A DNA stretch of 27,297 nt from UHGV virus genome UHGV-0184544; one strand, 5' to 3'. Each line of letters begins with the position of its first letter. The first letter of the stretch is position 1. The notes under the pieces were generated by a model that did no database searches, had not been told where the DNA came from, and saw nothing but the letters and a program-made list of their open reading frames with translations. The DNA is from a virus. The translations under genes were made by a program, and so were the position numbers. Below, piece by piece: positions 13,396 through 14,202 of the stretch.

Positions 13396-14202
13396 ATGGC
13401 AAAGCTGGACTGGAAAAAACTGGAGCAGGCATTCCGACGCGAACATGCCGAAACGGGAATAACATTACTGGAGTGGTGCCGTAAGAAAAAGATTAATTAC
13501 AACACCGCCAGAACCCGTATAAAAATGGGCAAAATCGATCATGAAATCGATCATAAAACCGATCATGAAATCGATCATGACATCTCAGATGAAGAACCCA
13601 GCAATGACGCGGGTTCCGACGATGAAAAATGCGCAAAAAATTCTGAAAAAAACTGCGCAAATTCGGCAGAAACGAAACGCAACAGCAGATCGGGCAATCC
13701 TCACCCCGTTGCCCGGTTTAGCGACCGTAACACCCACGCCGTGAGACACCGTGGATATGCGAAGTATCTTGAGGCAGATAACCTCATGGATGATGCGTCC
13801 GATATGGTGCTGTTCGATGAACTGGTGTTCACCCGTGCCCGCGCACTTTCAGTAACAGGAACACTGAAAAAAATGTTCGCCGACCTGAAAGAGGCGGCTG
13901 ACGTGGAAACCCGTGTTGCCCTGTACGACAAAATACTCAAAGCAGAACAGGCCCTTGACCGGAATATTGCCCGTATCGAGTCAATTGAACGCTCATTGCT
14001 GACGCTGGACGTTCTGGCGGAAACAGCACCAAAACTTCGTGCTGACCGGGAAAGAATCAACGCTGCCAGAGATAAACTCAGAGCGGAAACCGATATTCTG
14101 ACCAGCCAGCGTCGGGGCGTTGTTACGCCTGTCAGTGATATCGTGTCATCGCTGCATGAAATGAGTAATTCGGGGAGACTGGATGACATTCCGGAAGAAT
14201 GA
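13396..14202 (+). CDS. Putative terminase small subunit
   Basis: Immediately upstream of and overlapping the large terminase. N-terminal HTH-like segment, C-terminal coiled-coil-like region. Assignment mainly positional. Confidence 0.55.
   Translation: MAKLDWKKLEQAFRREHAETGITLLEWCRKKKINYNTARTRIKMGKIDHEIDHKTDHEIDHDISDEEPSNDAGSDDEKCAKNSEKNCANSAETKRNSRSGNPHPVARFSDRNTHAVRHRGYAKYLEADNLMDDASDMVLFDELVFTRARALSVTGTLKKMFADLKEAADVETRVALYDKILKAEQALDRNIARIESIERSLLTLDVLAETAPKLRADRERINAARDKLRAETDILTSQRRGVVTPVSDIVSSLHEMSNSGRLDDIPEE
13536..13583. repeat. Four tandem copies of a 12-bp unit (CGATCATGAAAT-like), each carrying a GATC site, in frame within the small-terminase gene
   Basis: GATC at 13537, 13549, 13561, 13573, exactly 12 bp apart. 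Encodes KIDHEIDHKTDHEIDHD. Confidence 0.8.

Follow-up and report, generated by a model that had tools for sequence, protein, structure and literature searches.

A tandem GATC array within the small-terminase gene of a 933W-type prophage as a candidate pac recognition element

What purpose might be served by four Dam sites placed exactly 12 bp apart within the coding sequence of a phage small terminase? The question is raised by the virus genome UHGV-0184544, of which a stretch of 27,297 nucleotides (nt), analysed here in full and referred to as the window, contains an array of four 12-bp units within terS, the gene for the small terminase subunit, TerS. A first-pass annotation had offered this array as a candidate pac site of the kind known from phage P1, or as a site sensitive to Dam and SeqA. 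Our comparison of the gene with its relatives makes it probable that the array comprises binding sites for the helix-turn-helix (HTH) domain of TerS and forms the recognition part of pac, the hexamer having switched from TGCGCA to (C/T)GATCA. Judged from sequence, the conserved feature is an array matched to a DNA-binding domain; the Dam sites are not the essence of the element, because most relatives use TGCGCA, which contains no GATC. The features on which this reading rests are the following.

13534 to 13581: the GATC array, four tandem 12-bp units each with CGATCA; proposed sites of the TerS HTH domain and recognition part of pac.
13396 to 14202, plus strand: terS, small terminase subunit, 268 amino acids (aa), of a 933W-type headful-packaging prophage; assigned by its PHROG 370 match.
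13396 to 13533, plus strand: PacA-like N-terminal three-helix HTH domain, residues 1-46; predicted from AlphaFold2, hhalign and PHROG matches.
13531 to 13743, plus strand: predicted disordered linker, residues 46-116, holding both hexamer clusters; from the AlphaFold2 predicted local distance difference test (pLDDT).

A direct scan of the sequence places the GATC sites at 13537-13540, 13549-13552, 13561-13564 and 13573-13576, with spacings of 12, 12 and 12 bp, as had been noted at the outset. Read in register from 13534 to 13581, the units are ATCGATCATGAA, ATCGATCATAAA, ACCGATCATGAA and ATCGATCATGAC; Tandem Repeats Finder delimits the array as 13532-13584 and gives a period of 12, 4.4 copies and 87% matches. 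The array occupies terS codons 47-62, in frame, and specifies the His/Asp-rich IDHE repeat that the first-pass annotation had recognized (IDHEIDHKTDHEIDHD). Its assignment of the array to a small-terminase gene is likewise borne out, the open reading frame at 13396-14202 matching PHROG 370, "terminase small subunit", at E=1.9e-119. The pattern GATCAN7GATCA occurs three times in the 27-kb window, always within the array, against a shuffle expectation of 0.02. Since the cluster arose by tandem duplication, this excess over chance is a sign of repeat formation, and the real question is whether or not the repeat is selected as DNA.

To this question the relatives of terS give an answer. DNA of the gene was taken from 105 loci, together with further loci for chosen variants. 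In almost every family member the usual motif is the palindromic TGCGCA, present in 4-7 copies within ~240 nt after the HTH codons, and such arrays were found in 50 unique genes from Escherichia coli, Citrobacter, Yersinia, Serratia, Brenneria and Aeromonas. The copies are distributed over three reading frames, with 89, 59 and 204 occurrences encoding Cys-Ala, x-Ala-Gln/His and Val/Leu/Met-Arg-x, respectively, and they follow one another at uneven distances of 7-24 bp that centre on roughly one helical turn. Synonymous-codon shuffles give an expectation of 0.5-0.9 copies (P<0.0005 in 10 of 11 genes, P=0.0015 in the remaining one), and the terS arrays stand ~60-fold above the background of 0.41 per kb measured in 519 kb of flanking DNA. 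Because three frames are used, the synonymous shuffles are exceeded and the flanking background is low, these sequence comparisons indicate that the TGCGCA arrays are clearly selected as a DNA motif and not as a peptide repeat.

The motif, moreover, changes with the domain that precedes it. The helix [ST]ARR[YH][IL]K is paired with TGCGCA, SAKRYITIK with five copies of TTCGCA (hosts Pectobacterium, Brenneria and Symbiopectobacterium), and TART[RQ]IK with GATCA. Two further variants (loci L122:2501-3316 and L121:2501-3334) carry unrelated N-terminal domains on the shared C-terminal TerS body and have no TGCGCA at all; in one of them GGTACGAAA is repeated three times and followed by two copies of GTACCTCAAAAA, and in the other there are six TCCG[TA]C or G[TA]CGGA elements, with spacings of 12 and 13 bp that shift the frame (P<=0.002). 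In all, five pairs of DNA-binding domain and motif can be distinguished, with TGCGCA, TTCGCA, GATCA, GGTACGAAA and TCCGTC/GACGGA as the motifs. Enrichment over synonymous expectation holds for TGCGCA, TTCGCA, GGTACGAAA and TCCGTC, and the test is uninformative for GATC. The window array fits the family pattern both in its position, within ~250 nt after the HTH codons, and in the pairing of motif with helix. We refer to this class as 933W-type TerS (PHROG 370) with a domain-matched in-gene array, a grouping defined in this analysis.

A Salmonella clade of 57-62% identity extends the pattern for GATCA itself. TGATCA repeats were predicted there beforehand from the peptide SDQKSDHKNDH and the helix NTARTQIK, and they were found: the DNA reads AGTGATCAAAAA, AGTGATCATAAA, AACGATCATGAA and more, with five or three copies of (T/C)GATCA at an exact 12-bp spacing and at the same offset from the start codon as in the window, and with different variable residues in the unit (Ser/Asn, Gln). 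The array of the 933W subclade consists of one TGATCA and three CGATCA. When the units of E. coli and Salmonella are compared, the first residue proves to be Ile, Thr, Ser or Asn, and position 2 takes any of the four bases; A at position 1, C or T at position 3, and GATCA remain constant throughout. That these bases persist while the first residue varies points to a DNA constraint, A-N-Y-GATCA. The GATCA units align in register with TGCGCA units, sharing TG-NN-CA and A-rich flanks. A hybrid array was also observed in an E. coli terS of the TGCGCA type (locus L065:~2150-2230), where three TGCGCA are followed by TGATCA in the 12-bp register and then by the degenerate units GCGCAC and TGTGCA; an array of this kind could represent a half-way stage between the motif types.

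These comparisons bear on the possibility that the array acts as peptide, with the His/Asp/Glu-rich (IDHE)n stretch binding metal ions or setting the length of the linker between the DNA-binding and oligomerisation domains. Such a role would suit a composition rich in His, Asp and Glu and length steps of four residues, which keep the frame. The relatives, however, have chemically unrelated peptides in this segment (SAQKNAQK, VRKTAQS, SQIRSSQK and GRTDGRT); disorder is predicted here, and neither Pfam nor NCBIfam gives a domain match. We consider a peptide-level role very unlikely; like each of the other alternatives discussed below, it is at odds with the evidence, drawn from the whole family, that the motif acts at the level of DNA.

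Aligned with an E. coli gene of the TGCGCA type, the window terS shows 90-100% identity in alignment columns 1 to 60 and 86-100% (mostly 100%) from column 300 on, with 10-70% between. Because identity drops between columns 60 and 300, the left array and the greater part of the HTH domain can be regarded as one divergent cassette. Two smaller features of the gene were noted further downstream. A segment of ~13 codons at window 13679-13720 (codons ~95-108) occurs as two alleles, NSRSGNPHPVARF in the window and IRGSRLLPPSNAF in the 933W subclade, both of which are found in E. coli, Salmonella and Citrobacter lineages (also at loci L033, L086 and L109). Their DNA is ~30% identical over 30 columns in genes that are otherwise 93-100% identical; this low identity, together with the failure of any frame to match by eye, speaks against a compensated frameshift as their origin, an explanation that we rejected. 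Just upstream, ACGAAACG (Thr-Lys-Arg codons; window 13670-13679, AAACGAAACG) hardly varies among the terS genes of E. coli, Salmonella and Citrobacter and is also kept in one of the two swapped-domain variants, with Thr nearly always encoded by ACG. A further element acting as DNA, for instance a cut region, may lie here.

Where, then, does the array lie in the protein? AlphaFold2 predicts TerS helices at residues 6-20, 24-31 and 35-41, with block-mean pLDDT of 75-87 over residues 1-40, and the putative recognition helix reads NTARTRIK. Because pLDDT is <50 at residues 46-110 and 112-116, before a helical C-terminal body, the repeat appears to occupy the codons of a disordered linker directly after the DNA-binding domain. 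The linker stretch is hypervariable in the family alignment and its peptide is poorly conserved. A Foldseek search of the PDB with the AlphaFold2 model gave no match at E<0.001, only generic helical bundles, and Pfam and NCBIfam searches gave no family for TerS or for the large terminase.

The number of units varies. Among E. coli relatives, protein clusters and DNA together reveal forms with 1, 2, 3, 4, 5 and 7 units, differing by whole 12-bp units only, so that the tract is length-variable and always in frame. The suspicion, voiced in the first-pass annotation, that this might be a slippage-prone tract of variable length is thus confirmed by the copy numbers of relatives. In a spread sample of 60 of the 403 matching records from complete E. 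coli genomes, four units are the commonest form by far, accounting for nearly all full-length matches sampled; matches in three of the sampled genomes are 12 bp shorter, and in one of these the presence of three units was confirmed. Forms with one unit and with two come from one draft assembly each.

The N-terminal domain of TerS is related to that of P1 PacA. PacA belongs to PHROG 1711, which the window TerS matches at 7e-7, and PacA in turn matches PHROG 370 at 1.7e-4; hhalign aligns PHROG 370 with the PacA family at 96.6% probability and E=5.8e-10 over 48 N-terminal columns that include ...NTAR(R/T).... Beyond these 48 residues, the remaining ~220 residues of TerS belong to a different family (phrog_370 versus phrog_1711). 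The pac site of P1, defined by experiment, consists of seven TGATCA/G hexamers inside pacA, with cleavage between groups of four and three (PMC10028697). From the annotation and sequence, the hexamers begin at pacA nt 193, 200, 212 and 227 and at 323, 335 and 346, spanning 193-351, and between the two clusters lie the annotated IHF site and the cut, the latter at ~nt 277. Relatives of PacA down to 28% identity (Xenorhabdus) retain both clusters, the left one with 3-4 TGATCA at distances that are often 12 bp, and their TGATCA clusters fall in two reading frames.

Two features downstream of the array have to be considered before the reading is weighed.

13630 to 13659: two TGCGCA hexamers (13630-13635 and 13654-13659), set 24 bp apart on either side of a degenerate unit.
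13688 to 13691: a single extra GATC (AGATCG), not part of a cluster, 115 bp past the last array unit.

Tandem Repeats Finder recovers a second array at 13625-13661, with a period of 12, that covers both TGCGCA hexamers; TGCGCA occurs 9 times in the 27-kb window, two of these copies being those at 13630 and 13654. The pair encodes Cys-Ala, where relatives have Ala-Gln or Val-Arg. It sits 50-80 bp downstream of the GATC array, close to the 3' end of the divergent block, and directly precedes a stretch ~100% identical to genes of the TGCGCA clade. It is possible that the pair represents a right-hand cluster or a relic of a TGCGCA-type backbone. The GATC at 13688 is missing from the 933W subclade allele.

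Several observations weigh against recognition of the array by TerS as part of a pac site. Retention of two TGCGCA hexamers in the window is one of them. Variants with one or two units are surprising if several sites are essential, and the covariation of motif with domain could partly reflect genetic linkage, the two being <100 nt apart, instead of function. A simple rule, in which a change of helix residue 40 from Arg to Thr specifies GATC, was considered and rejected: because P1 PacA has a TARRY helix yet uses TGATCA, recognition does not follow a simple code. In P1 the cut is flanked by a four-hexamer and a three-hexamer cluster, whereas the window has one GATC cluster; terS contains no second cluster comparable to the three-hexamer group of P1, only the single GATC at 13688. 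No match to the IHF consensus WATCAANNNNTTR with <=1 mismatch was found in 13396-14202, where a weak site is possible. In the literature we found no description of the pac sites or termini of 933W, Stx (Shiga toxin) or Sepvirinae phages. Finally, shuffling synonymous codons gives 3.8 GATC in the array region against 5 observed (P=0.3, range 0.18-0.48), a test that is uninformative for this array because Asp-His/Gln codons nearly force GATC. The P1-like pac proposed in the first-pass annotation therefore stands in part: a PacA-homologous domain, a matching hexamer and DNA-selected arrays in relatives argue for it, and on the other side the P1 layout is half present and an IHF consensus is lacking.

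The result of the synonymous shuffle raises the possibility that the array is an accident, generated by slippage in linker codons that tolerate almost any sequence, with GATC arising incidentally from Asp-His codons (GAT CAT) and having no role as DNA. A GATC count not above synonymous expectation is what this explanation would lead one to expect, as are a linker that is predicted to be disordered and is hypervariable, and a range of 1 to 7 units in which no full-length variant recovered (7, 5 and 4 units) shows a visibly damaged gene. It does not account, however, for the arrays that all other clades have at the same position and that are clearly DNA motifs, occurring in three frames at ~8-fold over synonymous expectation and including frame-shifting spacings of 13. 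Nor does it readily explain a unit whose first residue changes among Ile, Thr, Ser and Asn while its position 1 (A), position 3 (C/T) and GATCA stay constant, or an Asp codon that is always GAT within the units when both GAT and GAC are used just downstream of the array. We therefore regard an accidental repeat as unlikely.

It might also be supposed that the array responds to Dam or SeqA for reasons unrelated to terminase binding, for example through SeqA sequestration that times late events or affects the passage of replication forks. SeqA needs two or more closely spaced hemimethylated GATCs, and four sites 12 bp apart would suit it, their spacing placing >=2 GATCs within ~31 bp and roughly in phase with the helix. 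The window as a whole (1-27297) is poor in GATC, with 81 observed against 109 +/- 8.7 expected and all shuffles giving >=81; the sites are closely set in the first ~4 kb and few at roughly 7-13 kb. Most relatives, though, have TGCGCA, TTCGCA or other motifs at the same position, and because these lack GATC, a response to Dam or SeqA cannot be the conserved role. The array also lies inside a late operon, with no promoter or origin context. A dedicated Dam/SeqA element is in our view most improbable, and SeqA binding could be a side effect of a role in pac.

For the preferred reading, in which TerS recognizes the array as part of pac, we propose the following scheme. On concatemers of the phage DNA, the PacA-like HTH domains of TerS oligomers would engage the repeated (C/T)GATCA hexamers; the bound array would mark pac and recruit the large terminase, and a nearby cut would start a series of headful packaging events. 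The IDHE... peptide would be largely a by-product of a DNA array lodged in the codons of a disordered linker. Because the encoded peptide is such a linker, units could be gained or lost by slippage, or by unequal recombination, in 12-bp in-frame steps. Since each hexamer holds a GATC, either recognition or cleavage could require Dam methylation, as at the pac site of P1, for which methylation dependence of cleavage has been shown (PMC10028697, citing Sternberg and Coulby). By this analogy, and provided that the role in pac holds, Dam dependence is a real possibility, though we would put it at somewhat less than even. Such dependence would rely on host Dam, because no phage-encoded Dam methylase is annotated in positions 1-40565 of Escherichia phage PhiR5_2, a close relative.

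The surrounding genes are those of a packaging module.

14183 to 15889, plus strand: terL, large terminase subunit, 568 aa; assigned by terminase matches to PHROG 2 and 24361.
15889 to 18033, plus strand: portal protein gene, 714 aa; Pfam PF16510 P22_portal, E=9e-129.

The 3' end of terS overlaps the start of the large-terminase reading frame by 20 nt, and terL presumably encodes the nuclease and motor that TerS recruits. Large terminases of this type have been classed as "headful (933W type)" (PMC7317114), from which we infer headful packaging for the window phage. The window terS is 99.9% identical to that of PhiR5_2 and 93% identical to genes annotated terS in many Stx-converting phages, and its first 405 nt (13396-13800) are 100% identical to the chromosome of a uropathogenic E. 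coli. The prophage itself is a 933W-like phage without stx. In PhiR5_2 (L001:9557-11263, ~window 8950-10660), a 569-aa protein annotated "unknown protein encoded within prophage CP-933V" occupies the slot between nin-region genes (ninB, rusA, ninH) and the holin gene, and the annotation of the replication and nin region includes a HigB/HigA toxin-antitoxin pair. A 368-bp contig of a Xanthomonas pisi assembly (NZ_JPLE01000258.1, locus L023), probably a contaminant, codes for a protein that matches the C-terminal end of TerS at 100% identity.

The array provides a candidate pac for 933W-type phages, to which most Shiga toxin genes belong, and a defined candidate would open packaging initiation, transduction (generalized or lateral) by Stx phages, and the design of phagemids for these hosts to direct test. 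The paired domains and hexamers that occur naturally on one conserved TerS body offer a system for studying how small terminases read pac, and the GATC version would be a second, independent case in which to test the model of Dam-gated packaging, known so far only from P1. More tentatively, we speculate that in 933W-type phages, including Shiga-toxin phages, exchangeable cassettes composed of a TerS HTH domain and its own hexamer array set which DNA is packaged, and that the switch to GATCA makes initiation Dam-dependent as in P1 and insulates the phage from cross-packaging by co-resident TGCGCA prophages; this wider proposal is possible but doubtful.

TerS sites inside terS and the hexamer pac site of P1 are already known, and to our knowledge a series of array-and-domain cassettes has not been described. 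Several other systems share part of the arrangement seen here. In phage lambda, the R sites of cosB are several short repeats that adjoin the terminase genes and are bound by the winged HTH of gpNu1. By analogy, the window array may likewise be a set of short repeats for the N-terminal HTH of a small terminase; lambda differs in that it packages from cos, has its sites upstream of the gene, depends on IHF and uses another motif and protein family. The SeqA clusters of oriC and P1 oriR, the latter with annotated Dam sites, resemble the array in having several GATCs within a few helical turns, an arrangement well suited to SeqA in the hemimethylated state, but they lie in origins or promoters, whereas the window array is in linker codons and is represented by non-GATC motifs in other clades. 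In P22 (gene 3), Sf6 and SPP1 (pacL/pacR), as in the window, pac is inside the small-terminase gene, and the SPP1 site is built of repeated boxes bound by TerS; P22 and Sf6, in contrast, have a single ~22-bp site and no tandem hexamer array, and all three phages lack Dam sites there and have no sequence or family relationship to the window (PMC11260489).

The closest parallel is P1. Differences between the two are evident in the first base of the hexamer, which is C in all four window units and not T, and in the two TGCGCA hexamers that the window has instead of a second GATC cluster. The large terminases also differ: BLASTP of the window protein against P1 PacB gave nothing (best E=3.4), and their only common match is to the generic large-terminase family phrog_2. 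On the other hand, both phage types use headful packaging, and in both a (T/C)GATCA hexamer with an embedded Dam site is repeated about once per helical turn (at spacings of 7, 12, 15 and of 12, 11 bp in P1, and of 12, 12, 12 bp in the window), inside the small-terminase gene and shortly 3' of the codons for a homologous HTH domain. In motif, spacing, position after the HTH codons and ancestry of the binding domain, the window array thus resembles the four-hexamer half-site of P1 pac.
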